The notes beneath the pieces are model-generated. The model was not told where the DNA came from. It was given only the letters and a program-made list of their open reading frames with translations, and did not search any database. Below, piece by piece: positions 2,918-54,832 of a stretch of 64,000 bases of DNA. The DNA comes from a virus (lineage: Duplodnaviria > Caudoviricetes), in IMG/VR virus record IMGVR_UViG_3300015214_000001, positions 144,459 to 208,458 of that record; one strand, written 5' to 3'. Both the position numbers and the translations under genes were made by a program. Each line of letters opens with the position of its first letter. The first letter of the stretch is position 1.

Positions 2918-3868
2918 TTATTCTAAAATCATGGAACGTTGATAAGACTTGATAATTGTTAATACATCGGCTGGTATTCCCATTTCAACACCAACGCTCA
3001 TATCAGAGACACCCAACCTACCGCCTGTTTGCAATACAGCTTCACGCCACGTCTTAGCAACCTGTAAGCAGGCTTGGACTATATCCTCAACAACATTCCA
3101 CCGATGTATTTCAGTCGTTGAAAGATGACTAGTTGCTATTGTCCCATTAACGCCACGAATAACAGTCACTTTCGTTTTGTCAACACCAGTTACTTGCATA
3201 AACTCATCGCCCATCTTTATAAGTCTACCTTCTAAAAACGCACGTTCTCCCCAGTTATCGAAAATAGCATCAGGAGGAACTGTGAATGCAATTTGGCGCG
3301 TGACTGCATCAATGTTGGCGTTTAGTGATCCATTTATTTTTATCCAGAAATCATGGGGGTAAGATCGGCTAGGTCTGCTCTCCGCATATCCCCAAATGCC
3401 ATCTATTTTTATTACACCTTCGTTAACTCTAGCTGCATAAGGATAAGAATATCCCCATCCCCCACCCCATGCTTTAGGGAATTTCAACCCTACTGCATAA
3501 TGTGGTTTTGTATTCAATGGCAACAAATAATAGTCTTTATCGGTTAATAGCTGTTCGCCATTTTTTATCTCATTAATGGCAATGAGGTCAGCATCAACAA
3601 TCAATTCAGCAAATGGAAGTCGTCGCCTAGATAAATCAAAAAAAGAATTAGGGATAGGATATTCCCTAACTTGTCGGCTCGGGAAAAAGCTACGCCTTGT
3701 ATAAGTTTCGATATACCTAGTGGCGTGGCGCAGATAATCGCGTATCTTCTCATCATTAATTTGAGTACGATTATCTTTTAAATTCATGTCCTCAACAATA
3801 CCACCCGTATTGCCGATGTCTTTTGCTTGTTCAAAGTCACTGATAAGTGCATATGTTAGGCTGCTCAT
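2918..3868 (-). CDS. Head-tail adaptor (SPP1 gp15/HK97 gp6-like) with inserted beta domain
   Basis: ATRYIETYTRRSF, GIWGY, DIVQACLQVA and IPADVLTIIKSY motifs; insert GRLIKMGDEFMQVT...VIRGVNGTIATSH. Confidence 0.7.
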   Translation of the reverse strand: MSSLTYALISDFEQAKDIGNTGGIVEDMNLKDNRTQINDEKIRDYLRHATRYIETYTRRSFFPSRQVREYPIPNSFFDLSRRRLPFAELIVDADLIAINEIKNGEQLLTDKDYYLLPLNTKPHYAVGLKFPKAWGGGWGYSYPYAARVNEGVIKIDGIWGYAESRPSRSYPHDFWIKINGSLNANIDAVTRQIAFTVPPDAIFDNWGERAFLEGRLIKMGDEFMQVTGVDKTKVTVIRGVNGTIATSHLSTTEIHRWNVVEDIVQACLQVAKTWREAVLQTGGRLGVSDMSVGVEMGIPADVLTIIKSYQRSMILE

Positions 3869-3870
3869 AT

Positions 3871-4332
3871 TTAACCCCCAGTGACGCTTGTGTGAGTAAA
3901 AAACGCATAGGCGCTAATTGCCCCTTCAGTTCCACCTGATAATCTTGCTCTGAAATAAGTATTTCTAAGTACAGGTATCACGTATGATGTGCCATCAGAA
4001 GGGGTTACTGACGCATTTATTGTCGCTTGATCGCCCATTTCAAACCCTTCTATCGGAAACCAGACCTCACCATCGGGACTTGTTTCAAAGTTAACAGTGC
4101 CATCGTAGCCTTCCAATGTTTCAAACCACACCCATACTGCATTAAAATTGCCATTAGACAGCAACATCCCGTTTAATGGGTGTTCTGGATTTGTTAATGG
4201 AATAGGTGGATCAGGCTGACTGCCATCATAAGGTGTTTCGTTGTGTAATGTAAAAACTGTACCATTTGATGCTGATTTGATAAATTCTGACACGACATAT
4301 CTCCTGAAATTAAAACAGCCGATAGCCGACAA
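3871..4332 (-). CDS. Putative virion structural protein (beta-sandwich)
   Basis: GTVNFETSPDGEVWFP and YFRARLSG pattern; within the head module; true start probably GTG near 4293. Confidence 0.5.
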   Translation of the reverse strand: MSAIGCFNFRRYVVSEFIKSASNGTVFTLHNETPYDGSQPDPPIPLTNPEHPLNGMLLSNGNFNAVWVWFETLEGYDGTVNFETSPDGEVWFPIEGFEMGDQATINASVTPSDGTSYVIPVLRNTYFRARLSGGTEGAISAYAFFTHTSVTGG

Positions 4333-4354
4333 TTTCTGTGGCTATCGGCTGTTT
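4313..4354 (-). terminator. Hairpin AAACAGCCGATAGC...GCTATCGGCTGTTT
   Basis: 14-bp inverted repeat downstream of 4374..5234. Confidence 0.55.
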
Positions 4355-4373
4355 CGCTTAATTGTATAAGCTA

Positions 4374-5234
4374 TTAAGAAACGTTCGGGTTTTCACCTAC
4401 CATAGAAAGGTAGTCAATACTTCCCTCAACTTCACCCGCCGCTAATGTGTGCAATGAACCCCACGGGGTTATTTGTACATTTAAGGCGATGGCTTCTTCG
4501 ATTATATGGATTAAGCGATTGCCAACATAGAACAAAGCATCGCCAGTAGGTGTGATAACAATCCCTAATTGCGTCCAAACATTAAGTTCAACAGGAATAC
4601 CTGTATCATATGCTTGATTAAAGCCATTTCTTGCGGTGTTTAAAACCCAATTAGGACTCGCTTCATTTGGATCGAAAGCGAATATTGTCGCATTATCAGC
4701 CACAGATGTGACTGCATCAACAGAGTGATCTGAGAATGCAAACCCGTCAGTCATAGTAACGTAGTCAGCGATGCCGAACTCAAACACCACATCAGCTAAA
4801 GCACCAACCTTGACGTTTGTATTAAAGTAGATATAACCAGCATCATTGAATGCGCCAGTGTACCAATTTAAACCCGCTGCAATTGAGACATAATCATCTG
4901 CATCTGGGCCAGCTACTAACTTTAATACCCCGCCAGGCTCACCCGACAATGTAGCCGCGCTATCATCACCAACCGTTTGACCAAAACCACCTGGATTGAC
5001 ACTAGGTGAATTAACAATAAAGTGGTCAAATAATGCGACATGGTTTGGTGAACCCAATGCCAATGCAGTTAAACCGCCTTGCCACGGCACAAAAGTTGGG
5101 ATGCCAGCGCGTGCGCCAAAGACGAATGCTTCGTTGTTAGCGTCATTTGCGCCAATTTGCCTTTGAGCGATATTAGAGTTATTTTGTTGCCAATATTTTA
5201 AATCATTTGTTGCCATAATGCCCTCGCTTGTCAT
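4374..5234 (-). CDS. Virion protein with concanavalin/LamG-like beta-sandwich; paralog of 24014..24949
   Basis: Shared motifs FDHFI/FDDFI, EFGIAD/EFGFSD, NATIFAF/NAVTFAY, ALFYV/ASFFV, IDYL/ADYI. Confidence 0.55.
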   Translation of the reverse strand: MTSEGIMATNDLKYWQQNNSNIAQRQIGANDANNEAFVFGARAGIPTFVPWQGGLTALALGSPNHVALFDHFIVNSPSVNPGGFGQTVGDDSAATLSGEPGGVLKLVAGPDADDYVSIAAGLNWYTGAFNDAGYIYFNTNVKVGALADVVFEFGIADYVTMTDGFAFSDHSVDAVTSVADNATIFAFDPNEASPNWVLNTARNGFNQAYDTGIPVELNVWTQLGIVITPTGDALFYVGNRLIHIIEEAIALNVQITPWGSLHTLAAGEVEGSIDYLSMVGENPNVS

Positions 5235-5405
5235 GTCACCTTATTTAAATTGCCTTGACCGCAACCCATACGCGGCGGGTATTGCATCGTCAAGGCAAAA
5301 ATAAAAAGATATAGTTTGCGTTTTTGTGTTTTTGTGTAATTATCTGTGCTTGTTTAATATGGAATTGCAGTCGCCTTCTTAAATTTTAACGACTGCAACA
5401 ACACA

Positions 5406-25979: not shown

Positions 25980-27368
25980 CTACTTGCGTTTATAGGTATT
26001 TGGTTCTGCCATTCTAACGATGGTTGGCGTAAACTTCCCTACAATCCTGATATATGGCTGATGAGATAAAACTTCCTTAGCTGACTTATAAACTGCTGGC
26101 AGTTCATCTACCCCACCGCCAATCAAGTAGATGTTATGTTTATCTTTGATGTGTTGATGAACATCAAGTGATCCGAATTTCTCAATAGCTTGTCGCCTGC
26201 TCATTACTCGGCCCGCGCCATGTGACGCGCTGTTATAGCTATAATCCATACTTGCAGATGGTATATGGTCAACAATATACGCGCCTTCTGCCATCGTTGC
26301 TGGAATTACCCCTCTCTGCCCACTAACTAGTTCAGTAGCACCTTTGCGATGAATATATAATGTGTTGCCTTCACTATCTACAATTTCTGACGCAAAGTTA
26401 TGCACACTATAGACGATTGTATGGCGAGTATCTGCTGATACATTTGGGGATATAGCCTCCCATAGTCGCTTATGAACATACGCATGGCTATGACGAGCAA
26501 ACTTTCTAGCAAAGGCCATCATAGCCATATAGTCATTAATTAATTGCTTATCCATAAGAGGAGCAGCGGTAATACCCTTAGGCATTTTGAATTGTTTACG
26601 TGCTACTTCCTCAAAGTGTTTAGCGATAACTGCACCAATCCCACGACTGCCGAAATGAGACAATAACGCGGGACTAGGTTGGTCATCACCTAATCGGCGT
26701 GTATAGTATCCATATTCTACAAAATGATTTCCATCACCCGATGTGCCAAACTGGGTAGGAACTAATTGCTTGAAGGCATTATAAGTAGCGATACCTTCTT
26801 TGGTCACTAACTCTGTGGATAATTCATCTAAGGCAAGATCAAGACCATAGGTTTTATATGCCTCAAGGTCAGGTTGTTGACTATGACCAAAGAATGTGTT
26901 ATTGAGAATTGCATCAACAACAACATCATGCGCTACATCTTCAAAAGACTCAGGACTACTGAAATAAACAGAACAAGCTAAGTCAGCGCTTGCCCATTCT
27001 GGAACAGGATGCTTACTGGCGATTACACCACCAACAGGCATCCCATTTTCCCTTGTGCGATGTGCATCAGGCATTAATGCGCCACCAACAACTGTTTCTA
27101 GCGATAACATGGCATTCATGTCAGCAATTGCCGATGGCTCAATCAGCGAACCACCAAATACGGTCATATCAGGTTTATGTTTATGTAATGGTAAATCTTT
27201 TGGCGCATTATTCTTTAAGAATTGCGCTTTTTCCTTCAACCATACCCAAACATCATCGTAACTATGACCTTCATTAAGCATCTTAAACGGGATGCTATGA
27301 TCTGGAAACTGATGTTTCTTCATGTAATCTTGGATAGCTTGGTTTGATGTTTTATTGCTCATTAGCAT
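25980..27368 (-). CDS. rtcB: RtcB-family RNA ligase
   Basis: MPDAH, ADLACS, GDGNHFVE, HFGSRGIG, HNFA, HRKGAT, SASHGAGR, DELPAVYK. Confidence 0.93.
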   Translation of the reverse strand: MLMSNKTSNQAIQDYMKKHQFPDHSIPFKMLNEGHSYDDVWVWLKEKAQFLKNNAPKDLPLHKHKPDMTVFGGSLIEPSAIADMNAMLSLETVVGGALMPDAHRTRENGMPVGGVIASKHPVPEWASADLACSVYFSSPESFEDVAHDVVVDAILNNTFFGHSQQPDLEAYKTYGLDLALDELSTELVTKEGIATYNAFKQLVPTQFGTSGDGNHFVEYGYYTRRLGDDQPSPALLSHFGSRGIGAVIAKHFEEVARKQFKMPKGITAAPLMDKQLINDYMAMMAFARKFARHSHAYVHKRLWEAISPNVSADTRHTIVYSVHNFASEIVDSEGNTLYIHRKGATELVSGQRGVIPATMAEGAYIVDHIPSASMDYSYNSASHGAGRVMSRRQAIEKFGSLDVHQHIKDKHNIYLIGGGVDELPAVYKSAKEVLSHQPYIRIVGKFTPTIVRMAEPNTYKRK

Positions 27369-28303
27369 CCCCTCAGTTCAGCTACTTTGAATTTAATCTC
27401 ATCTATGAAAAAGTTGTCTGCTGATCCCTTTAAACGGTTGATGCTAAATTCATCTTTGGCGTGGGCTACAAACTCATTATAATCTCCCCATTTGCCATAG
27501 ATTTCATCAGCCAATTGATTGCGCCAAATAATAGCATCCTTGATAGAGACGTTGCCAGTCCTAATGCCCTTAAGTGTTTCTTGTTCATCACCAACCATCG
27601 CAGTTTGCATAAAAGCATCCCCAGTAGTAGAAGCGTATCTGTGACGAAACATTGATACGTCAATATATCTACTGATGCTTGATAAGCGCTCGGCTATACG
27701 TGCAGTGTCTCTTTCACTATCAGCGGATGTCAATATGCTTTTAGCTACGATAATGCGCCGAATAGCATCAGCTAAATCTTTGCGACATTCAACTTCATTG
27801 CCCTGAGAATAATGATAAAATGCTTGAGCTAATTTGCTAGAACGCTTACTAGACAAACACAATGAAGGGTCATCACACCACAACAATAAGGTTTTGCTAT
27901 CAAAGTTTCCTGATCCACCTAGTAACCTAAACACTGTCTTTTTAGAGATCAGCTTAGGTGCTAACAGACGTGCTAATTTTCCCACAGCGTCTTGTTTCCA
28001 AACATGCGATTCATCAGCAAATAAAACATCAAAATATTCTGGTGTCCCCTTGCTATAAATAGCATCAAAGAAATCTGACACAAAATAAGTTGTCATGTCA
28101 ACATTGGCAATTTTACTACTCTGACTTCTGCTGACTGTTTCCCCGCCAACATTTAACAGCTTGCGATAACCTACGGAAAAGAACCCCCGCAAATCAGTAT
28201 CGCTTACCTTTAATGGCAATGAAGATTGATTAACATCATTTTCGGTGATCTGTAATCCATATAGGATACTGCCGACTTTAGTTACTAAATGCAACATTTC
28301 CAT
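27362..28303 (-). CDS. Pol-beta-superfamily nucleotidyltransferase (RlaP/YcgL-like)
   Basis: VGSILYGL...SDTDLRG signature; overlaps the rtcB start. Confidence 0.75.
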   Translation of the reverse strand: MEMLHLVTKVGSILYGLQITENDVNQSSLPLKVSDTDLRGFFSVGYRKLLNVGGETVSRSQSSKIANVDMTTYFVSDFFDAIYSKGTPEYFDVLFADESHVWKQDAVGKLARLLAPKLISKKTVFRLLGGSGNFDSKTLLLWCDDPSLCLSSKRSSKLAQAFYHYSQGNEVECRKDLADAIRRIIVAKSILTSADSERDTARIAERLSSISRYIDVSMFRHRYASTTGDAFMQTAMVGDEQETLKGIRTGNVSIKDAIIWRNQLADEIYGKWGDYNEFVAHAKDEFSINRLKGSADNFFIDEIKFKVAELRGC

Positions 28304-28956: not shown

Positions 28957-30426
28957 TTAGCTACCATCACCTAGAATTGAACCATCACTTACTGCGCGGT
29001 TAAATTCGCCATTTAAATCTTTATCTTTCCACATCAAATGAATAGTGCCTTTTTTGTACACACGACAATTGAAGAATTCACTCTCAAACACATCGCTGTA
29101 AGTAGATTGGTTTTTGCGACACTTATCACTATGATCTTTTAGCGCGTCACCGACTGAGTATATGGTTGTTGGATCAACCCCACGTAACCAGCACAAGATT
29201 TTTTCTAAATCTTCAATAGCGGATTTAGACCAGTTCTGGTAAGAGTAAGACCAGCTTATCCCCCATGTATCTACACTTACAGCATAGGGGAAGATATTCT
29301 TCATGGCGATTTTCCATGATTTATTGTTCTTCCAAGTTTCGCCATTTTTCCCATCAATGCTCATCATTGTTTTAGCAACTGCATAGGCGGCCTCTTGCAT
29401 CAAACGGTCTTTATTGAACATAAACGCTTCTAAGACTAGATAGATGTTTTTTACAGTAAAAGCCGTTCTCATACCATGCTGTTGTACTTCCTGTAAAAAC
29501 TTCTGACGATATTCATGTGTGGTTTGTTGACCGAAGCGAGTAGCTTGAAAAACAGCTTCCCAGAAACGAACCTTGATATTTTTAATTTCTGCATTAACAC
29601 TTTCATATCCATCATTCTTGAATTGAACGATTTCGCCAGTGGTTGTTCTTAAGACTTCTTCATAGTGCTTAAGCTGTTTTAATGCTTCAATTGCTCGGTT
29701 ATAGCGTTCAACCAATAGCGTGATGCTATCTGCACGAATAACCAACCCACCAGATACTTCGTCTTGATCGGCAACTGTAAAGTCATCACGGCTATCCATT
29801 TCTTGCCAATTAACGCCCGAGCTTGTTTCTTCCTTATCAGGCTTGTACAGCCAAATAATAACAGTCTCGATATTTGTTTTACGAATTGCTTCTGAAAACC
29901 CACCTTGAACATATTCGCAGTTCCCGAAAATATCAATCAAATCTACTAGCTTTTTGCGGTCATGTGTGGAAGGGTTCTTGACTGCATCCGCGTTCAATAA
30001 TACAACCATCTTGCCGCCTGGCGCTAAAATATCCCACATTTTTAATACGTGCTGCACACCATTATTAAATGGTGGATTTGCCACGATAACATCAATAAGA
30101 AACGGGTCACTTTCAGCCAAAAAGTCAGTGCCGATTACAGTATAACCTTTTGATTCAAGTATTCGACTACGTTCAGGATTGACTTCGTAGACCAACATAT
30201 GTTCAACATTAACACCTGTTCGTTTTAAGTAATCTAGGATATGTCCTTCACCTGCGCTTGGTTCGAGCAGTGAATATTTAACAGGCAATGATCTACGAAT
30301 GTGTTCCCCACGCTTTGTTTCTAGGATAAATGGCGCTACCATTTTTTGAATTAATGGCAGTGGGGTTGGGTAAAACTGTTCTTCATCGTGATACACGTTA
30401 TGCTCCTTAATGTATATTGCACTCAA
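28957..30426 (-). CDS. N6-adenine DNA methyltransferase with DUF4942-like C-terminus
   Basis: FYPTP, LEPSAGEG (motif I), NPPF (motif IV); C-term DLEKILCWL..FESEFFNCRVYKKGTIHL. Confidence 0.85.
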   Translation of the reverse strand: MSAIYIKEHNVYHDEEQFYPTPLPLIQKMVAPFILETKRGEHIRRSLPVKYSLLEPSAGEGHILDYLKRTGVNVEHMLVYEVNPERSRILESKGYTVIGTDFLAESDPFLIDVIVANPPFNNGVQHVLKMWDILAPGGKMVVLLNADAVKNPSTHDRKKLVDLIDIFGNCEYVQGGFSEAIRKTNIETVIIWLYKPDKEETSSGVNWQEMDSRDDFTVADQDEVSGGLVIRADSITLLVERYNRAIEALKQLKHYEEVLRTTTGEIVQFKNDGYESVNAEIKNIKVRFWEAVFQATRFGQQTTHEYRQKFLQEVQQHGMRTAFTVKNIYLVLEAFMFNKDRLMQEAAYAVAKTMMSIDGKNGETWKNNKSWKIAMKNIFPYAVSVDTWGISWSYSYQNWSKSAIEDLEKILCWLRGVDPTTIYSVGDALKDHSDKCRKNQSTYSDVFESEFFNCRVYKKGTIHLMWKDKDLNGEFNRAVSDGSILGDGS

Positions 30427-31271
30427 CTATACAATCGCTTTCAATATCATCTAAAAACATCATTCGCAATTGCTTAGGTTTATCTCTATCGGCTCGCATA
30501 GTTTCTATAAATAATTCTACCAGTGGATAAGGCTTTTTAACACCGTCAATTGTTCGCGTCAAAATGGCATAATCGGCATATTTAGGGTTACTTCTCATCT
30601 TATTCTCCCAAACCATTGCACGCATGAAATTTGGTAAATTGAAATAGATCGCTCCACGCCAATATTTAGTACCAGCTTTAAAACAAGTACCGCCACAATT
30701 GCCAGTTACCATATTACCCAGTTCGCGTTCATAGTAGCTAATCGGCAATTTGATATTATGTTGTTCACAGTATGCTAATGGGTCTTTTATTCGTGGGTAA
30801 AACCAGAGAGGGTATTTAACATATACATTGCGTTTAGACCAATTTTCGATGGGCGCTGGCAATCTTCCGTATGGCTTGTCAGTTCTGGCGCGTTGATACC
30901 GATCCTTCATGTTGTAACCAATCAACATGAAAACCTTATTGTACCCCCCCCATAATACGAATAGTTTCAACATACTGTTGAATAGGCTTTACTTTTAGCT
31001 CAATCGTGCAATTGGCAACACGGCTATTAAATATCATGCCTTGTTCTTCTGATATGTCATAGGGAGTTTTCCCGCTATTTAAGCGATGGATTTTAATCCT
31101 CAATAGGTTTTCAAGGTCACGCAAAAATCTATGATGATCTTCATGCTCTATATTGGTGTCGGCAAATACAGGGTAAATATGTTCATGGGGATATAGTTCA
31201 TAAGCTCTAATTAGGGCAGCTGCGCTTGATGCGCCACTTGACACTGAAACGATATAAGCCGATTTTTCCAT
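30407..31271 (-). pseudogene. PAPS-reductase/PP-loop family gene split by a G8 tract (30944-30951); phase-OFF allele or sequencing frameshift
   Basis: 5' part VSVSSGASS, FADTNIEHED, CTIELKVKPI; 3' part LIGY, YPL, NCGGTCFKAG; G7 or G10 joins them into 287 aa. Confidence 0.8.
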
Positions 31272-31884: not shown

Positions 31885-32191
31885 TTTTACCCCTTTAGTT
31901 GGTAGATATACTACAAGGCTACTATGCAGGTTAGGTAAATGTCAACATAAGGTTTTGTTAAGAAATGTTAAATTTAGAATTAATACCCCTATGGTGATGT
32001 TTTCTGATACTAGGTGCAGTGAGTAGAAAACAAATTAGAACAAAAAATATTATCATTAATTCAACGCTTTTAAATGTATCGCATAAGGGCTTGGATTTTA
32101 CCCTCTATTAATTGTTAAGATTGTGTAAATCTTCCCTAAAAATTGGATATTCACCCTAGATAACCACTACCTAAACTGCTATCATATAGGG

Positions 32192-32662
32192 GTGTTGAAT
32201 GATTGTTTTCAACACAGCACGTTAACAACACAAGGGGAAACAGCTATGTCCTATTACTACTTAGATCAAACTAGCTTGCCTATTGAACCGATTAGCTTTG
32301 TGCAAATGTGGTTCATGCGATATATGCAAATGCCGTTAACGGAAGGTCAAGCGGAGTCCATACGTCAAGACCTATTATCCCGACAGGCAAAATTGCTACA
32401 ATGTGCTAACTTTGACCATAAAACAAAGCAATTTGTCGAATGGTGGGAATATCGCACATTGAACAAAGAAGCATTTATCTTAGGCATGTCTAGCCAAGTG
32501 GTAATTCTAAATCGGTCTGTGCTGAGACTAAATAACAATATGATTTACCCATTGTTACGCGCCTCAGTATGGGAAAGCACCTACGAAACTTTCGACAATC
32601 GCTATATATTCAATATTGGCGAGTCGGTTGCTCAACACATCCCTCACGAAAGTTTCGCCTGA
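32192..32662 (+). CDS. Hypothetical protein (start likely ATG 32246)
   Basis: SD AAGGGG upstream of MSYYYL. Confidence 0.6.
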   Translation: MLNDCFQHSTLTTQGETAMSYYYLDQTSLPIEPISFVQMWFMRYMQMPLTEGQAESIRQDLLSRQAKLLQCANFDHKTKQFVEWWEYRTLNKEAFILGMSSQVVILNRSVLRLNNNMIYPLLRASVWESTYETFDNRYIFNIGESVAQHIPHESFA

Positions 32663-32669
32663 TTATTCA

Positions 32670-32700
32670 TACTTGACAGATAGTTACTATCTGTCAAGTA
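32670..32700. repeat. Perfect 14-bp inverted repeat TACTTGACAGATAG-tta-CTATCTGTCAAGTA
   Basis: Between 32662 and the clamp gene; each arm carries TTGACA. Confidence 0.8.
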
Positions 32701-32739
32701 ATATTTTTATCAAACAAACACAAGGAAAAGGAAATAAAA

Positions 32740-35136
32740 ATGTCCAATGTTAATGCAATTATTCACGGAACAAAGTTTAATCGCTTCGTAGACTTAGCCA
32801 AGCGATTAAAGACATGGTATGGGCAAAAGGATATTGAAGTATCCATTTACAATAACAAAGTGTATGTGTCGATGTTTCAAGGCGATTTAGTCGCTATCAT
32901 CGGCAATACATATAATGAGGAAAATCTTTGCTTTTCGTTTCAGTTGGATGAAATCACAAGTAAGATCGCTAGTCTTGCTGATATAAGGTTAGAACTGTCC
33001 GTGCCGATTGATGGTGGTAATGCCACATTGTCAGACAGTGGTGCTACAATCAACATTCCAGCTGTTAAGCCACTAGGTCTTATCAGTAAAGAAATTACCA
33101 GCTATGATGATAGGCTAAATGTGACACAATTCATGACTTTAGATAAAAAGGTTATGAAAGAACTAATCAAGTCTATCTCAGCAACATCACATGAGGTTTT
33201 ATTTATTATTGGTGATGGTTCTAAAGTTCGGTTTATGACATATGATGGTTTGGGCATTTCGCAAATCATTGTTGATGTTGAAGCTCATGAACCGTTCCAA
33301 CGGTCTTATTATGCAAAGCCAGTTTTAACAGCGCTTAAGGGACTATCTCTAAGCAAAGATGTTAAAACAATCAACTTGTCCTTAAATGAAAACGATGGTT
33401 TTCTAGTGTATGCCGATGATGAATTGACATACTTAGTGAGAACCGACCACAATAAAGACGATTATAACCCTGAGAAATACCCATTAAATTTTCAAAGCAA
33501 AATTGACTTTATGATCGTTAATGAGCAAGCGCAATTTGTCAACCTTAACGGAAAGTCAATGTCATTAGCGCAAGTCATCAGCGATAAAGGCTTAGATAAG
33601 CAAACCTGTTGGATTACGGCTAATGCGCTATCTGAAACCATCACAATAGCAAATATTATTGGTGGTTACAATGATGTAACATTCCCTGCATTTGTCAAAA
33701 ATGGGACTGAAATTGCTGTAGGCATTAATGGCAAACTGCTAAAAAGTTTGCTCACGACTTATGGTGACTTAATGTTTAGTATCCGTGATGATGCTCTTGT
33801 TATCACAGTTAATGGTCAAGGTGGCTTTGAAGTAAACAGCATTATCGCACCGATGGCACTTGACTTTAACAATGATGTGGCGCGTAACGTAATTAAGCCT
33901 GTTATGAGTGTGAATCCAGCCACATACATTGACGCGAATGAGTTCTATGCTATTATTCAAGCATTGCTCAACAATAGTGATAGTGGGACGATCTCTATCT
34001 ACAATAGAGATAATGGGTTACAAGTCATTAGTGGCAATGGGGTTAAGTATGAGGTTGGCTTTGTGACAAATAAGCCAATTGAGGGGATGCCAATTAACGC
34101 TCGCGCTAACTCGAATGCGTTCTTCAAACCTAGCGATAAGAAGTCTTTATCGGCAAAGTTTAGCAATCTAACTAGTAGCATGTTGAGCGTGTACGTTATC
34201 GACAATAGCATTAAGCTATATGACGAAAACAATGAGATTATCACATTGCCCTTTTATGTCAATGATGACACCAAAGAAGTTGTTATTACAAACTATAAGC
34301 GTACTGAGTTCTTCAATAGCAAACAAAAGGCAGTTGTCACATTAACCAGCGATGACTTTAGAAATGCCGTTAACATCGCTAGTAAATTCGCGGCAACCGA
34401 TAACAATAGACCTACAATCAATAGTGTGCATTTCTCTTTCCGTAAATCAGAAGTTGAAATTGTTGGCACTGATGGTTATAGGCTGAGTGTAGATACCAGA
34501 AATAACCTAGCGGGTACTGTTGATGCTGATGGTTTGTGCCTTGAGCCTAACGCACTGCTTAATACGCTTAAATCAATTGCTAACGCTTATATCTCATTAG
34601 TGCTGGTTAATGATGGTGATACTGTAGCTATTATCGGACATGATGAACCAGATAACCTAACATCTGACAGTAGCAAAACTATCACCTATCTGTTTATCAT
34701 TCCTGGTAGATTTCCTGATTATTCAGTAATCTTACCTGCTAAATCAAGCATGATCTATTTTGAAGAAATTGAGATCACGTCTGATAAAATCACAAGTAAT
34801 GGTGATAGTTTTGAAACAGTGTTTGAGCGTGCAAATAAACTATCAAGCGACAATCATTTTCTAGGTGTATTCACTGTAAAGAGATATACAAGTACAGTTA
34901 CATTCAGTGTCCCTCATGCCGACAAAAAAGCACAAGGTCATGCTCTATCGCTAGACATCCCCGCGCAAAATATTCATGCTGATTACAATATCGGTGTGAA
35001 TATAAAATACTTGTTAGATGCTGTGAAGTTAAGCGATAAGCACAAACATATGTTGTACTTTAGAGAACAACGCGACTATCTAATTGGTAAGTTTGGAACA
35101 GTTACATACGTTATCATGCCAATGTTGAACGCCTAA
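32740..35136 (+). CDS. Double-length DNA polymerase III beta-clamp-like protein (two tandem beta protomers)
   Basis: Second half: FAATDNNRPTINSVHF..VGTDGYRLS, PGRFPDY, IGVNIKYLLDAV, YVIMPM; first half degenerate: MTYDGLGIS, EKYP, VGINGKLLKSLL, SIIAPM. Confidence 0.8.
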   Translation: MSNVNAIIHGTKFNRFVDLAKRLKTWYGQKDIEVSIYNNKVYVSMFQGDLVAIIGNTYNEENLCFSFQLDEITSKIASLADIRLELSVPIDGGNATLSDSGATINIPAVKPLGLISKEITSYDDRLNVTQFMTLDKKVMKELIKSISATSHEVLFIIGDGSKVRFMTYDGLGISQIIVDVEAHEPFQRSYYAKPVLTALKGLSLSKDVKTINLSLNENDGFLVYADDELTYLVRTDHNKDDYNPEKYPLNFQSKIDFMIVNEQAQFVNLNGKSMSLAQVISDKGLDKQTCWITANALSETITIANIIGGYNDVTFPAFVKNGTEIAVGINGKLLKSLLTTYGDLMFSIRDDALVITVNGQGGFEVNSIIAPMALDFNNDVARNVIKPVMSVNPATYIDANEFYAIIQALLNNSDSGTISIYNRDNGLQVISGNGVKYEVGFVTNKPIEGMPINARANSNAFFKPSDKKSLSAKFSNLTSSMLSVYVIDNSIKLYDENNEIITLPFYVNDDTKEVVITNYKRTEFFNSKQKAVVTLTSDDFRNAVNIASKFAATDNNRPTINSVHFSFRKSEVEIVGTDGYRLSVDTRNNLAGTVDADGLCLEPNALLNTLKSIANAYISLVLVNDGDTVAIIGHDEPDNLTSDSSKTITYLFIIPGRFPDYSVILPAKSSMIYFEEIEITSDKITSNGDSFETVFERANKLSSDNHFLGVFTVKRYTSTVTFSVPHADKKAQGHALSLDIPAQNIHADYNIGVNIKYLLDAVKLSDKHKHMLYFREQRDYLIGKFGTVTYVIMPMLNA

Positions 35137-35159
35137 CAAATATCAGCACAATATTAAAC

Positions 35160-35195
35160 AAAAAGAGCAAGCTATTGATATGGCTTGCTCTTTTT
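35160..35195 (+). terminator. Intrinsic terminator AAAAAGAGCAAGC...GCTTGCTCTTTTT
   Basis: Stem plus T-tract 24 nt after the clamp stop. Confidence 0.75.
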
Positions 35196-35391
35196 GTATT
35201 CTATGGGGGATACAGTCATTATATAACAACTAACTGCATTTGCCTAATCGCGCTAATAATAGAAAATTTTGTTCTAAAAACAAAAAAATCTTCTTGGTTG
35301 TTGAAATTATTTGTTTGTCTGACATAGGGCTTTCTCACAGAGGGGTATAATCAGGCTCATTATACGTTTGTGCTAATGAGCCTGATAGATG

Positions 35392-36336
35392 TTATTCTAG
35401 CATTTGAACGTGTTTAGATGCACCAAAGTCAAGCAACTCATTAGGAAGTTGATTAAGTCTTACCTGTTGCTCATACCACTTGATAACACTTGCATTCCAG
35501 ATCACAGCAGCTAAGTGATCTTCTGATGTATCCTCATTAGCAAATGCAATAACATGACGCAACATAGAAGCATAAACCCTACTAACGTTAATGCCCTTTT
35601 GCCAATTATTGACACCATATTTAGCAGCGCCGACATAGTATAGCCTAGCAACGTGATTCAACGCGATTTTAGGGATTAATGTGTAATCGCACTCTGATGT
35701 ATTATAAAGTTCGGCAAACTGGGGTTTATCGCTGTTATATAGTGCCTGATCGGTAGCGCATCCACCATACCCACTTTGCAAAGTTTTCAGCACATCTAAT
35801 GGGATTAGATGATACATTGGCTTGCCTTGCTGATTATCTCTGTGAGCGCCTGTTGTAAACTCGTCAGTTACATTGCCACCCTTGACAATTGGCTTATCGC
35901 TGTCAAGTTCTAACTGAGGAATCACATCGCCTAGTGTTTTGTTGGTCATATTGAATTGATGAATAAGCTCATCTAGGCCACCATCTTCATAATAGTGTTT
36001 CCAGCGAACCTCTTTAGTCTCAGGGTCAATCCATGCGTGAGATAGAGCAGACCATGAGTAATAACCCTCATTATCCATTGAATACGTTTTCTCATCAGCA
36101 CATGAGCCTTTTATGAATTTCACTTCTCCTTCGGCAATGTCGTAAACCCATAGCGTATTTGTCATTGCTACAATTAAAGCCTCATGCACATGATCGACAA
36201 AAACAGCTATCGGCTTATATTGATTAACAGATTCGTAAGGATATTTCCATTTTTTCTCTGATATGTGCCGATAGTATAGTGAACGATCACGATGCACTAA
36301 CTCATAATCTTTAAATCTTACGTACTTTACTGACAT
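35392..36336 (-). CDS. dATP/dGTP diphosphohydrolase (DUF5664-type) domain protein with N-terminal extension
   Basis: FTTGAHRD..GKPMYHLIP, GAAKYGVNNWQKG, ASMLRH, EDHLAAVIWNA. Confidence 0.8.
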   Translation of the reverse strand: MSVKYVRFKDYELVHRDRSLYYRHISEKKWKYPYESVNQYKPIAVFVDHVHEALIVAMTNTLWVYDIAEGEVKFIKGSCADEKTYSMDNEGYYSWSALSHAWIDPETKEVRWKHYYEDGGLDELIHQFNMTNKTLGDVIPQLELDSDKPIVKGGNVTDEFTTGAHRDNQQGKPMYHLIPLDVLKTLQSGYGGCATDQALYNSDKPQFAELYNTSECDYTLIPKIALNHVARLYYVGAAKYGVNNWQKGINVSRVYASMLRHVIAFANEDTSEDHLAAVIWNASVIKWYEQQVRLNQLPNELLDFGASKHVQMLE

Positions 36337-37356
36337 TCTTGCGCCCCTTGAACGATTGTGTTACAGGATTTAATGCTAAGTCAATATCAAGCCCACCAGT
36401 GCCATCAAATGCCCTTTGACCGATGCAAGATTGACACAGATTAAAGGGGTCTTGATTATCCAATTCTTCTGGCTTAATCGACTTTTGTAAATGCCACCCT
36501 TGAGTCAATCTGTCAGGGTGTAAGGTCATATCTTCTTCATCCCATATTCCTGATTGAACTAAGGCTAATTGTAATTCATATGCCGTTTGAACTAGTTTTT
36601 CACGCAATTGATCTATAGTTTCATACTCTGGACTAACAATTGCGCGTCGTTCACGTTCACCGATGCTCAAATTCGCATAACATTGACATTCATAAGAATG
36701 CTTCATGTAATCAGCATATTCGTTGCGCGGGATGTTAAGTATCTCTATTGCTAAATCGCGTTCTTGAATGTGCCAATCAAAGATGGGGTTAGCTAGAGAT
36801 TTAATGACTTTGCCACGCTTATCCTTTTTAAGCATCATCAAATCAACAAAGCTATTTCGACGTGAGCTTTCAGCTTTCCGTAAGCCTGAAATTTGCATTA
36901 CTTCACTCTGTTTGACCTCTAACTTTTTTGCCACTTGAGAGAATAACTGATCGAGTAGCTTACCCTTCAATTCACGATACATAATAGAGTGATAGGCTGG
37001 TGATGGAAAACCCCATGAAATAATCAATTGCTCATATCTGCCTTTTTGTGGTGGCTTGCCAATTCTTAATTCCCATTGATATAAATTGGCAATATCATAG
37101 ATGTATTGTTTAGTTTCTTTAGCGCCTGTTAGCGTATTAGCCCAACAAGCGCCGACAAAACTATCAGGGAAAGCCAGTTGAGCGATTCTTCCTGCTAAAA
37201 CAGAATCGTGACCACCAGACCACGATACAGCTACGCCTTTAAATTCGTAAAGATGGTATTCTTTGCGAATCCTCTCAATTGTTTCATGTATTTTCTGTTC
37301 TACCCCCCCCGATTTGTTTCAAAGTGGGTTGTATCCTGAACAGTTTTGTTATTCAT
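36311..37356 (-). pseudogene. PAPS-reductase/PP-loop family gene interrupted at a G8 tract (37303-37310); phase-OFF allele or sequencing frameshift
   Basis: ATG 37356 (SD AAAGGG) reads MNNKTVQDTTHFETNRGG then TAG; G9 continues VEQKIHE..SWSGGHDS..GLRKAESSRR..NPIFDW..ECQC (348 aa). Confidence 0.8.
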
Positions 37357-50144: not shown

Positions 50145-50181
50145 TTAAATTTCCTTGTGCTAATATTTAATCGTTAACAGC

Positions 50182-50211
50182 ACTATATATCGGGGGGGGT
50201 AGTTTTGTCAA
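50182..50211 (-). promoter_or_regulatory. TTGACA-18-TATAGT promoter with a C8 tract in the spacer
   Basis: G8 on + strand at 50192-50199. Confidence 0.6.
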
Positions 50212-50230
50212 TAACGATTTTACAATGTCA

Positions 50231-51532
50231 TTATCTCCAACCAGAGATAACTCTTAGCGCTCTCAATAACTCACCTTGAAAACGGTCGTCATCAATTCTA
50301 TATGCCTTCGGTTCTACATCGACACCATTAATTGTCAATAGTCGCCAATGTCGGCAGTTGCCAACGTTGAGAGTAACTGCTTTGCCATCAACATTGGTCA
50401 ATGATAATCTGCCTACTGGCTCTCTATCTGTAATCTGCAAGTGATACTGAGTAGTGATGCACATTTTACTCAAATAGGTAATCCCGCGCATTAGATCATC
50501 AATTGGACTTTGTGCATTATAAAAAAGCATAAGGACTGGCATCAGTGGATTGTTTGATAGTTTAATCAGCTGTTTAGTATGGGGTGTTTCGTACAACCAA
50601 GCTGAGACTGTTCTTGATTCGTCGCTCTTGTGCCAATAAGACAATGTATAGCCATGCTCATTTTTAACTTTATCAACACGGCCATATTGCCAAATGGGTG
50701 ATTGCATTGCAAATGTCATATTAACTTCTTGCATCAGTCGCCTTTGGTAATAACTCGATGCTGATCGGGTGAGCATGTGTCAAGTAATCGGCAAAACTTT
50801 CCTTAGTCATCATATCTACCCCGTCCATGCTGGAAAGCAATATATATTCACCGACTTTAAAATAGCCGATACGCCCTTGAAAATCCTGTGTCAGTTCTTT
50901 CTTCACTTCTGCAATGAGTTGGTCAATTTGTGCTATCTGAAACTCAAGGTCTTGTCTTTGTCGATTATTCTCAATATAGCGCTCAATTAACTCAGCAGTC
51001 ATCACCCCTTCTGGTATGCCATTCACATAATCAAACAGCAACGTTTCACTATGTAGATCATGTGTTTTCTGCTTAACGCTAGTCAGCAATTGAAGATTGT
51101 CGCATTGTGTCAAGATATATTGGATGTGTTCGGGAATATCAAACACATCTTCAATACGTGGCAATAGTTCAATTCGCTGATTAATTTCTTCACTGCTATT
51201 CATTGGTCTATCCCCGTTGTATGCTAATAGAGCTACGGCTTGCGTAACTGTTTATACGATTATAGCACGGATTATGAGCTAATTTTCGCAATATACGCAT
51301 TTAAAACCGCTTCAATATCGGCGGCAAGGTTATCACCGCTGTAGATCAGTTGATCGTCGGCTGACCAGCCGAACAGTCCTTGATTGACTTCATCAAACAC
51401 GCATGGATACCACCAGCGCGACTCGAATTCATTAATCGCAACATAGGCTTTTTTGTTGGTGGGGTTGCGCTTGCCTAGCGCGTTAATCATGCTATCCGCT
51501 AGGCGTTGGCTTGTTTTGATGTTCTCAAACAT
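50231..51532 (-). CDS. Hypothetical genes 50231..~50719, 50721..51203 and 51272..51532
   Basis: Packed ORFs with SD sequences. Confidence 0.55.
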
Positions 51533-51740
51533 AATTTATCCTTATTCTAAAGTTACAACAAACGTTCTATACATTGTGCCATAGGTGCTAAGAAAATATC
51601 AATCCTCAATATTTTTATTGTGTATTTTGCCCTATAGTTTTAGGTAGTTTTTCCCTCAAATTGATAATGTTAAGGGTTATATTTTGTTGTGCATTATGCT
51701 ATATTAGACCTATCGCAAGCTATAAGAAAGACTGTCTAAA

Positions 51741-52904
51741 ATGTCTGCTTTTGAGATAAATAAACGTTATATTCACTCAATGCCGATAGGCAACATATCA
51801 GATACAGGAATAAAGTTAATCTGTGAGTACCTGACAAACATTAGACCTAGTTCTGATGAATTGTGGAAACAAACCAATGTAGACCGACATTTACCTTATG
51901 TTCTATCAGGCTTACCTGATGACTGGTCTTATACTTGGCTAGTAACAGGACGCGGGGAATATGTAGGTACATTCCCAAAAAGAATCGCTAAATATTATTA
52001 CCAAACACACAAGATCAAAATGCCGTCGAGTATTTTATCTCAAATTGGCAATATTGCTAAAGATCATTCAAGTGATATTGCTACCTATGAGTTTGATTTT
52101 ACAGATACTTTTGATTGGCAATCAGGCGATTATGGCGATAGTGGTTCGTGCTATTGGGGTAGCTATAGTTCTGCTAAAGAACTATTGTCTAGTAATGGTG
52201 GTCTTGCCATCAGGTTTTACAAAGACAATCAGGGATATGGTAGGGCTTGGATTATGCCCCATAATGAGTGTTACTACTTATTCAATGGGTATGGCTTACA
52301 ATTAGTATCAATTGCAAGGATTTTATCATCATTCCTTAATTTGTCTTATAAGGCTATTAGGATTAGTGCTATTCGATATATATATATCAATGGCGGTAAT
52401 CAATACGTTGTAGGGGATGTATCGGCAATTGCTGACATTACAAGCTATCATATCAATGTTGATGGCGATATTGAAGATGAGGATAACCGTCAATGTGATT
52501 GTTGTGATGATACATACCACTATGATGATATGTATTATACAGAAGATGATTATTGTTTATGCGAATCATGCTATACACATGAGACAACAACTTGCTATGA
52601 TTGCAATTGCACATATTGGCATGATGATGATATGCGTTTTATTGAGAACATAAATAGTAACGTTTGTGAAAGTTGCTATGAGCAATCATACTCTATGTGT
52701 GATAGTTGTGCTGATTATTTTAGCAACGACGTGTTGACTAATACCAGTGGTGATGATTATGTTTGTGAAAGTTGCTTAGAAGAATATGCACATTGTGAAT
52801 CTTGTGAGCAATTAATCGAATCTAACAGATTGATAGAACATGACGACTTGAATTATTGCGAGTCGTGTTATGCCGAACTATCATTAGAAACAAGCGATGA
52901 TTAA
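51741..52904 (+). CDS. Hypothetical protein with C-terminal tandem CxxC (Zn-ribbon) repeats
   Basis: CDCC, CESC, CYDC, CESC, CDSC, CESC, CESC, CESC in the last ~140 aa. Confidence 0.7.
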   Translation: MSAFEINKRYIHSMPIGNISDTGIKLICEYLTNIRPSSDELWKQTNVDRHLPYVLSGLPDDWSYTWLVTGRGEYVGTFPKRIAKYYYQTHKIKMPSSILSQIGNIAKDHSSDIATYEFDFTDTFDWQSGDYGDSGSCYWGSYSSAKELLSSNGGLAIRFYKDNQGYGRAWIMPHNECYYLFNGYGLQLVSIARILSSFLNLSYKAIRISAIRYIYINGGNQYVVGDVSAIADITSYHINVDGDIEDEDNRQCDCCDDTYHYDDMYYTEDDYCLCESCYTHETTTCYDCNCTYWHDDDMRFIENINSNVCESCYEQSYSMCDSCADYFSNDVLTNTSGDDYVCESCLEEYAHCESCEQLIESNRLIEHDDLNYCESCYAELSLETSDD

Positions 52905-52913
52905 TTAGCTTTA

Positions 52914-52949
52914 AAAACCGTCATAGATTATTATGGCGGTTTTATTTTT
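52914..52949 (+). terminator. Intrinsic terminator AAAACCGTCATA...TATGGCGGTTTT
   Basis: Stem plus T-tract after 52904. Confidence 0.7.
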
Positions 52950-52960
52950 AGTATCACTCA

Positions 52961-53124
52961 GAACAAAAGTTTTAAAAATAAAATAACCCCATTCTGAACT
53001 ATTAGCGAAACAGTTTAGAACAAATGTTCTGATCGTAAAATCGGCGTGATAAAAAGTTTGAGTGTTAGAACAAATATTCTGATTATTAGTAATTTTTTAA
53101 GATTAATTAATAGAACATTTGTTC
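52961..53124. promoter_or_regulatory. Cluster of four GAAC-N4-GTTC (LexA/Cheo-box-like) sites
   Basis: GAACAAAAGTTT 52961, GAACAAATGTTC 53018, GAACAAATATTC 53068, GAACATTTGTTC 53113. Confidence 0.65.
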
Positions 53125-53150
53125 TCGTTTTGCGGCATTACACTGATTGG

Positions 53151-54832
53151 TTAGATCAGTGTAATTTGATTTGAGCCGATACTGCCGATAAGTTGTTGAC
53201 GCAAGAGGGTTAGACGTTGAATTTCATCGTTGATTGCGCCGATACAAACATCGTGTTTTTCTTTTACTTTGACATGGGTTTCCATTTTGTCGATTAGACC
53301 GCTAGACGACGCATAGCGGACATGACGGGGTGTTTGATACTCTTTGACTACAAACCGATTGTGTATTTCTTCATCTAAAGCAGACACGGATAATTGCACA
53401 GAGGGGTCAATCTGAAACTTATCGGCAATAGAACCATCAAGTACATTATAAATATATCCAAGTGATAATCGAATAGCTAGGCGTTGAATTTCTTCGACTT
53501 TGCCCCATCGAGAGTTGATATGCACGCTATATTGACCATTAGCATCAATAGCTACATTAGGATCAACCTCTCCACTTCCCAAAGTAAATGGCAAATGATA
53601 CGCATTATTCACAAGTGTAACTTCCATCGGACATTTGATGAAAGCATCAGGCGATAGTGCCTTGATTTTATTGTCAAGAATAAGCGCATATATATTCGAT
53701 AGGGTGACATATTCTTCTATAAAGAAATAGTAGTGTTGTTGAATTGATCCCACATTCATCAACCAATTCAAATCATCAATCATCTTCTGACACGTATCGG
53801 CTGATACCAATGGATATTGATTGATGAGGTCAATATCTTCATTTGATAGACCAGCTACACTATATGATAATGTATGCCGCCAGCCTCGAGATGGATTATA
53901 ACGCCACACTAATGGATGTATGCCAGTCACCACATATGCTAAACGTGCAGAGTATTCAAAATACCATTCAAGATCATTATCAGAAGTTCCAAAACCTTCA
54001 ACAAACTGCCATATACCATCCTCATGCTGGTAGTGCTTAAGTTCTTCTGTTAGTGTAAGCTGCTTAGTATAGAACCATGACATTTCTAATGGCATTAGAT
54101 TGAATCCTTATTTTGTGTGTCTAACCAGTTGACCAATTTGTTATAAATCAAATCAGGCGTATCATAGAACCCGCGCACACCACCGTAATGATAATGCCCA
54201 AATACATGGGTTAAAGTAATGAGGAATAAGTGCTTATGATAACCCAACAATGAACCATGAAAATCATAGTTAACACCGATGTTTACACTATCGTCACCAT
54301 TGACGATATGGCGGCGCTCAACACTGATAGTTATGCAATCTTCATTAACAATTGTGACCAGACCTTCATCATTAGGATAAAACAGCTTATCAAGTGCTGA
54401 TAGAATGTTAGATGATAAACGAATAGATGCTTTACGTTCAAATGTTAAGTTATCTGGACTTGGAATTAATGCCACAATATCATCTGACTGTGAATATTCC
54501 CTGAAAAAACGTATCAGTTCTGAGATTGACTTATCATCTGCATTTCCGTCCCAGTAGATAATTTTTTGATCTTCATCAAGGAAGTCAAAGCCACCTCTAA
54601 TGCCTTCCAACACACCTGCACTAAAATCTATATCATATGCGTGAATGAATATAGCGCCTTTAAAGTAGGGGTCTAACGGTTGGTACACTGTAATGTCGCC
54701 TTTTTGCCAATTATTATACCCATGTGTCGAGCCTTCTTCTGGCTGGAATTGTTTATACTTATTGAATTCATCAACAATGCGTTCAATAACAGCCTTACTG
54801 ATTGCCACTTCAAAGTAATTTTCTCGTTGCAT
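53151..54832 (-). CDS. Two hypothetical proteins (53151..54095 and 54095..54832)
   Basis: TAATG-coupled long ORFs. Confidence 0.6.

Follow-up and report, generated by a model that had tools for sequence, protein, structure and literature searches.

A single bacteriophage gene was found to encode two clamp-fold protomers joined head to tail in one polypeptide, and structure models and domain-wise sequence tests give its domain order as I-II-III-I-II-III. The gene lies in a window of 64 kb, the whole stretch of DNA that was analysed, which contains the capsid, portal and terminase genes and ends a phage record of 208,458 bp that is complete and bears direct terminal repeats. The protein is real and an unusual version of a known machine, and the case for it rests on a single gene without relatives and on a ring whose closure we infer. 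We regard it as an even call that the protein is a natural ring with one gate and one docking pocket, loaded by the loader of the host. The fuller proposal, to which we give a little less than even weight, is that it represents the first natural monomeric clamp (1x6), with one gate and one pocket, which the phage, alongside its normal DnaN, uses on its own DNA as a single-client ring that does not mix and is hard to unload. The gene, its two protomers and their domains (d1 to d6 in order along the chain) are located in the window as follows.

32740..35136, + strand: tandem beta-clamp gene, 798 aa, 88.5 kDa, 2397 bp
32740..33861, + strand: protomer 1, residues 1-374, three clamp domains with a degenerate docking pocket
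32740-33075, + strand: d1, protomer 1
33121-33450, + strand: d2, protomer 1
33502-33855, + strand: d3, protomer 1
33862..33912, + strand: inter-protomer linker of about 17 residues (375-391), with boundaries estimated from alignments
33913..35133, + strand: protomer 2, residues 392-798, identified by models, hhalign and Pfam
33916-34263, + strand: d4, protomer 2
34327-34710, + strand: d5, protomer 2
34762-35127, + strand: d6, protomer 2

The original prediction of two head-to-tail clamp protomers in one chain is supported by structure models and by domain tests. In alignment-free Atlas models, residues 1-375 (N-half) and 393-798 (C-half) match DnaN at TM 0.76 and 0.81, respectively. Three clamp domains are found in each of these two segments, which gives the six domains per ring of the clamp superfamily, and the clamp-domain fold is repeated along the chain as is usual for that superfamily. 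The fusion claim depended on the fold of the N-half and survived on this point. Besides the TM value, an AF2 model of the N-half, built on a forced DnaN alignment and thus partly circular, has a pLDDT of 79, with values of 51-60 in residues 240-275, which cover the connector between d2 and d3 and the first helix of d3. In the VIA comparison this model matches 1vpk with Z 25.6 (rmsd 4.2, 344 aligned residues) and solved beta clamps with Z 23-26 over about 340 residues, values that share the partial circularity of the model; every VIA row with Z of at least 11 is a clamp or processivity factor. Whole-chain models are of low confidence (AF2 from the single sequence, pLDDT 32; Atlas, pTM 0.49), so closure between d6 and d1 is what we infer, and the secondary structure of the AF2 model shows the repeated clamp pattern. 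A complex prediction of the N-half with the C-half gave a score of 0.00, which counts neither for nor against.

Clamp HMM matches had been expected in both halves. They were obtained with Pfam in the C-half, whereas the N-half lies below all Pfam cut-offs and was detected by a custom DnaN profile. The Pfam matches are PF02767 and PF02768, and only PF02767 passes its cut-off, in a scan restricted to the C-terminal part (27.8 against 27 bits); the combination of PF00712, PF02767 and PF02768 above cut-off that marks a canonical DnaN is therefore not found in this protein. The custom profile, made from 45 DnaN proteins selected solely for resemblance to the C-half, gives the N-half 11.3 bits, compared with at most 5.5 for 1000 shuffles and 5.7 for the best unrelated phage ORF. 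By hhalign the N-half is aligned collinearly with DnaN (E 5e-4), and the C-half is matched with a probability of 99.6 and also matches PHROG 947. Homologues fit the C-half much better than they do the N-half. Tested singly against shuffles, d2 reaches z 6.7 with DnaN domain II, d3 6.1 with domain III, d4 4.8 with domain I, d5 45.6 with domain II and d6 16.5 with domain III. The remaining domain, d1, is not significant by sequence and was assigned by structure only. Each of d1-d4 retains just 1-7 of about 20 conserved positions, and the surfaces touched by the other loader subunits have therefore drifted.

All eight clamp motifs named in the original prediction are present, SIIAPM starting at nt 33838 and YVIMPM at nt 35107. 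Three stretches of the second protomer correspond to the docking pocket of E. coli beta.

34468..34485, + strand: pocket motif T577-L582 (E. coli beta T172-L177)
34711..34722, + strand: pocket motif F658-Y661 (E. coli beta F241-Y244)
35116..35124, + strand: pocket motif M793-P794-M795 (E. coli beta M362-M364), followed by the free C-terminus

The residues that we take to form the pocket were chosen from beta-peptide structures. In the C-half, 19 of the 20 pocket positions carry the consensus residue of the homologues, and the pocket matches E. coli R152, T172-L177, F241-Y244, N320, Y323 and M362-M364. In the N-half, T172 is replaced by Y, R176 by G, F241-P242 by K-D and M362 by A, and the R152/L155 loop is absent. 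This position-by-position comparison bears out the earlier view that the pockets are asymmetric and only the second is conserved. One landmark used for that view is probably in the wrong register: EKYP was taken as the counterpart of GRFPDY, and a gap-free alignment continued from the preceding strand sets residues 239-242 (KDDY) against 658-661 (FPDY). Judged from the sequence, the pocket asymmetry stands despite the probably misplaced landmark. In a canonical DnaN every protomer has this hydrophobic partner pocket, set between domains II and III, and here it is found in the second protomer only. This intact pocket is located between d5 and d6, beside the proposed d6-d1 interface, and sequence conservation is concentrated in d5-d6 around it.

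The position of the pocket can be compared with what is known of clamp loading. When the E. coli clamp is loaded, one interface opens and the other remains shut. Delta occupies the canonical pocket of the protomer that contributes domain III to the opening interface, the second pocket binds only gamma3, through a less extensive contact, and the second protomer's domain I turns mobile (10.1101/2023.07.20.549978; PMC11044049). For the tandem clamp, d6-d1 would be the only interface free to open; the surviving pocket adjoins it, and d1 is the most diverged domain. By analogy, this layout of pocket and gate is suggestive of what a loader-opened ring would need, and the reverse asymmetry would aim the loader at the tethered joint. 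As evidence for a gate the pocket asymmetry is suggestive only, because it may have a simpler cause, namely that the linker, continuing from the C-terminal residues of the first pocket, just blocks that pocket.

The charge pattern also agrees with the clamp superfamily, being acidic overall (pI 5.26) with basic DNA-facing helices. With helix limits taken from the models, the inner helices of the whole chain contain 25 K/R and 14 D/E (p=0.006). The pattern is strongest in the degenerate half, where the counts are 15 and 5 (p=0.0015) and the net charge is +10, compared with a median of +3 for typical DnaN protomers. These basic inner helices argue that the N-half is still shaped for facing DNA.

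The phage possesses a second clamp gene, which encodes a canonical DnaN of 381 aa (genome 61315-62460, minus strand), and elsewhere in its genome a DnaE-type polymerase in which QMSLF, a clamp-binding motif, occurs at residue 944. Of the earlier description as a dedicated phage clamp, the clamp fold holds and the notion of a sole phage clamp does not, since the canonical DnaN is also encoded. Clamp-loader subunits were not detected in the phage genome, PF13177 and PF06144 being absent. The sole AAA match was rejected as a loader, as it sits in a protein that is RadA/Sms-like by its zinc finger and Walker A. The gene set therefore comprises two clamps and DnaE without a detectable loader, and this combination with a normal DnaN points to the tandem clamp as a second, specialised clamp. 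The canonical DnaN shares 48-56% identity with DnaNs encoded on Anaerolineae chromosomes and falls within this group in a quick tree, so these sequences indicate that the host is probably an Anaerolineae bacterium. The canonical dnaN gene adjoins a RecJ-like gene, called by sequence, and a ribonucleotide-reductase-like gene is close by. No relatives of the phage itself were found with its terminase, DnaE or capsid as query.

In the explanation that we favour, the gene would have arisen from two dnaN-type units in tandem. Within the ring, d3 would pack on d4 at a permanently tethered interface and d6 on d1 at the sole gate. The linker of about 17 residues is similar in length to the inter-domain connectors and is compatible with a ring that would close around DNA. 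The DnaX loader of the Anaerolineae host would put its delta subunit into the surviving pocket beside the d6-d1 gate, open this gate and then load the ring on DNA. Such a one-chain ring would take one client at a time, would be unable to form mixed dimers with host or phage DnaN and would need no dimerisation at low concentration. It would also be poorly unloaded by analogy with one-cleft E. coli beta, which is loaded and stimulates Pol III with its single cleft but is impaired in unloading (PMC2685083). As a canonical DnaN is available to serve the phage DnaE, the likeliest role would be a specialised, long-lived platform on phage DNA for a single client. Candidate clients are a polymerase, repair or modification enzymes, or clamp-dependent transcription.

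An unlikely but serious alternative is that the protein, whether or not it forms a ring, is a decoy or sink, which is not loaded productively and whose one pocket captures host clamp partners or delta, slowing host replication or repair. Such a role would fit the focus of conservation on d5-d6 around the pocket, the presence of a canonical clamp in the same phage and the lack of a detected loader; half-size phage clamp homologues, moreover, keep the same d5-d6-equivalent part (PMC3201878). Two domains would do for a decoy, however, and the four extra clamp-fold domains, exactly six in total, are left unexplained, as is the basic character of the inner helices in the degenerate half. DnaE and DnaN of the phage would also depend on the same loader.

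The isoelectric point speaks for the favoured ring and against an open arc. Low pI goes with ring-forming, loader-dependent viral clamps, and the value of 5.3 is within the ring-forming range, unlike that of loader-free factors (PMC3201878). Factors of the UL42/UL44 type combine a raised pI with the lack of a loader, and here the loader is absent but the pI is 5.26. We thus consider it quite improbable that the protein is a C-shaped or spiral loader-free DNA-binding factor like herpesvirus UL42/UL44, or that several chains join head to tail into larger assemblies, even though no loader was found in the genome, d1 is the most diverged domain and the N-half has more basic helices than typical protomers. 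Exactly six domains and a linker of suitable length are, besides, what a closed ring requires.

Several known systems resemble the tandem clamp in part. Both halves display the three-domain protomer fold of the bacterial beta clamp DnaN (E. coli 1MMI/2POL, T. maritima 1VPK; PF00712/PF02767/PF02768). Like the bacterial DnaN dimer, the tandem clamp has six domains in all, is acidic with basic inner helices and has the canonical pocket residues, in its second half. Unlike the homodimer, it is one chain with one pocket instead of two, shows 11-22% identity, and would have one non-covalent interface instead of two. A canonical DnaN is a homodimerising protomer of about 370 aa, whereas 798 aa and two dissimilar protomers are encoded here in one frame. 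The tandem clamp would work like a beta clamp yet falls outside canonical DnaN, having one chain and one pocket. Phage DnaN homologues, full-length and half-size (PHROG 947; PMC3201878), are also phage clamps, often without a phage loader; they have three or two domains, the half-size ones only II and III, whereas six are present in the tandem clamp.

Single-chain clamps have been engineered from E. coli beta (PMC3763527) and yeast PCNA (PDB 3K4X, PMC2824762), with six domains per chain and one openable interface. These constructs were closed or loader-active (PMC3763527; PDB 3K4X, PMC2824762), and a linker of 11 residues suffices for E. coli beta (PMC3763527). They are laboratory-made from identical copies, whereas the tandem clamp is natural and its halves have diverged past BLAST detection. 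The one-cleft E. coli beta+/betaC heterodimer (PMC2685083, PMC3022782) likewise has one working pocket per ring, and with it the clamp can be loaded, Pol III is stimulated and cells are viable (PMC2685083, PMC3022782). Unlike the tandem clamp, it is non-covalent and engineered, and either interface can open. The nearest natural precedent is VP1 of Haloarcula californiae icosahedral virus 1 (HCIV-1; PMC4958249), in which two tandem clamp protomers are found, the first degenerate and the second conserved, as here. HCIV-1 VP1 differs in being of the PCNA type, so that its two copies make four domains and not a whole ring, and in its size of 1608 aa, with HhH motifs and about 1000 further residues. 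Its PCNA copies are at 3472-5290 of locus L094, the first with an HhH insert and the second matching Haloferax PCNA with E 5e-28.

The two halves fail to detect each other by BLAST, and the duplication or fusion is therefore old. An origin by recent duplication of the dnaN that the phage carries was rejected on the basis of a quick tree, in which both halves form long unplaced branches and the phage's own DnaN nests in Anaerolineae. Word-indexed protein searches revealed no full-length or N-half relatives, and an exhaustive phmmer search returned only ordinary DnaNs, matching the C-half. A weak search of proteins of 703-2005 aa against the DnaN profile gave no double-length relative. No full-length relative was found in viral and metagenome contigs and GenBank phages, two detectable clamp places occur in 0 of 131 GenBank phage records, and among the best 50 viral fold matches only HCIV-1 VP1 is double length. 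A double-length DnaN was thus absent from the protein, contig, phage and structure collections searched, mostly by methods that would miss divergence like that of the N-half. As no full-length relative was found, conservation and dN/dS do not enter into the evidence for the tandem clamp. Long DnaN-like frames in Anaerolineae genomes proved to be single protomers with other extensions, P0032 was rejected as a tandem clamp because it is a zinc-ribbon fusion, and no tandem clamp genes were present in the neighbourhoods of the three top matches. Divergent DnaN-like proteins fused to zinc ribbons or C-terminal extensions (P0032; L090, 3519-5348; L091, 3484-4938) were observed in mobile-element-like contexts.

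A further alternative is that the protein is an exapted or decaying duplicate, with the clamp fold reused in a non-replicative role, for example as a virion or ejected protein, or with an N-half that is simply drifting. We give this reading little credence, since the fold and the charge pattern are kept at 11-15% identity and neutral drift would not preserve them. What speaks for it is the virion protein HCIV-1 VP1, in which the first clamp copy is likewise degenerate and the second conserved, the long branches of both halves, which are not placed with the phage's own DnaN, and the status of the tandem-clamp protein as a singleton. The 2.4-kb frame is nevertheless intact, with a ribosome-binding site and a terminator, and the gene is not part of the head/tail module.

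In reviews, ring clamps are either dimers with three domains per subunit or trimers with two (PMC9690074, PMC11044049). No natural single-chain clamp was found in the literature, as far as it was covered, and one-chain rings are known there only as engineered constructs. If the favoured ring is true, the series would be completed from a trimer of two domains and a dimer of three to a monomer of six, and a natural one-chain ring would demonstrate a viable 1x6 architecture under selection. As an asymmetric clamp that needs no engineering, it would allow tests of the toolbelt model and of the need for the second pocket in unloading. It would also test which surfaces a bacterial loader needs, as four of the six domains have lost almost all conserved residues. 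The question also arises why one phage should carry two such dissimilar clamps but lack a loader.

The reading frame of 798 aa at 32740-35136 on the + strand was confirmed, and the following elements surround it.

32157..32185, + strand: sigma70-like promoter candidate with extended -10 TG, a consensus match only
32246..32662, + strand: upstream co-oriented gene, 138 aa, no known family
32670..32700, no strand assigned: 31-bp perfect palindrome with 15-bp arms and TTGACA inside each end, unique in the genome, a T run after it on the + strand
32728..32732, + strand: Shine-Dalgarno-like AAGGA preceding the start codon
35158..35197, no strand assigned: bidirectional intrinsic terminator-like hairpin, z -6.7 and -5.5

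It can hardly be credited that an assembly error joined two adjacent genes, or that the internal start Met388, located where a DnaN N-terminus would fall, yields separate subunits, because the gene shows 0 nucleotide differences among three independent assemblies (ENA, JGI and Logan) and, in a scan of in-frame start codons, only codon 1 has a Shine-Dalgarno-like sequence, Met388 and every other internal start being without one.

The gene had been regarded as its own transcription unit, which is not plainly so, as the 138-aa gene lies upstream on the same strand with the 31-bp palindrome in between. The clamp gene comes second in a short unit on the + strand, which consists of the promoter-like site, the 138-aa gene, the palindrome, the clamp gene and the terminator, and the two genes are probably on one transcript. 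Promoter-like sites are as many as in shuffles, so the candidate at 32157-32185 is weak. The palindrome, with a hairpin z of -4.9, is a candidate for a weak terminator or attenuator, or for an operator. TAATAT is found 20 bp past its + strand TTGACA, an arrangement resembling a long-spacer, dyad-containing promoter; for a MerR-type reading of the palindrome with this 20-bp spacer, no MerR gene was found. The hairpin at 35158-35197 separates the clamp gene from a convergent dGTP diphosphohydrolase gene. Among the neighbours are a methyltransferase-like gene, PAPS-reductase-like genes and the dGTP diphosphohydrolase gene; these are on the opposite strand, and nothing links them to the clamp. PAPS-reductase-like genes occur on both sides of the clamp unit (window 30407-31271 and 36311-37027), and the one at 30407-31271 appears split into two overlapping frames.

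Further observations concern the phage genome at large. The JGI assembly 3300028603 is without a 13.4-kb block (window 40088-53500), the junction being at a short sequence common to both ends, TCTTCGACTT, which suggests a natural deletion variant or an assembly variant. A dispersed and conserved palindrome, ACGTGGA-NN-TCCACGT, is flanked by A and T runs and present in 14 copies genome-wide, with those in the window at 2130, 44471 and 59067; it is probably the site for a dimeric protein. An RtcB RNA ligase gene is coupled to a nucleotidyltransferase gene at 25980-28303 of the window.
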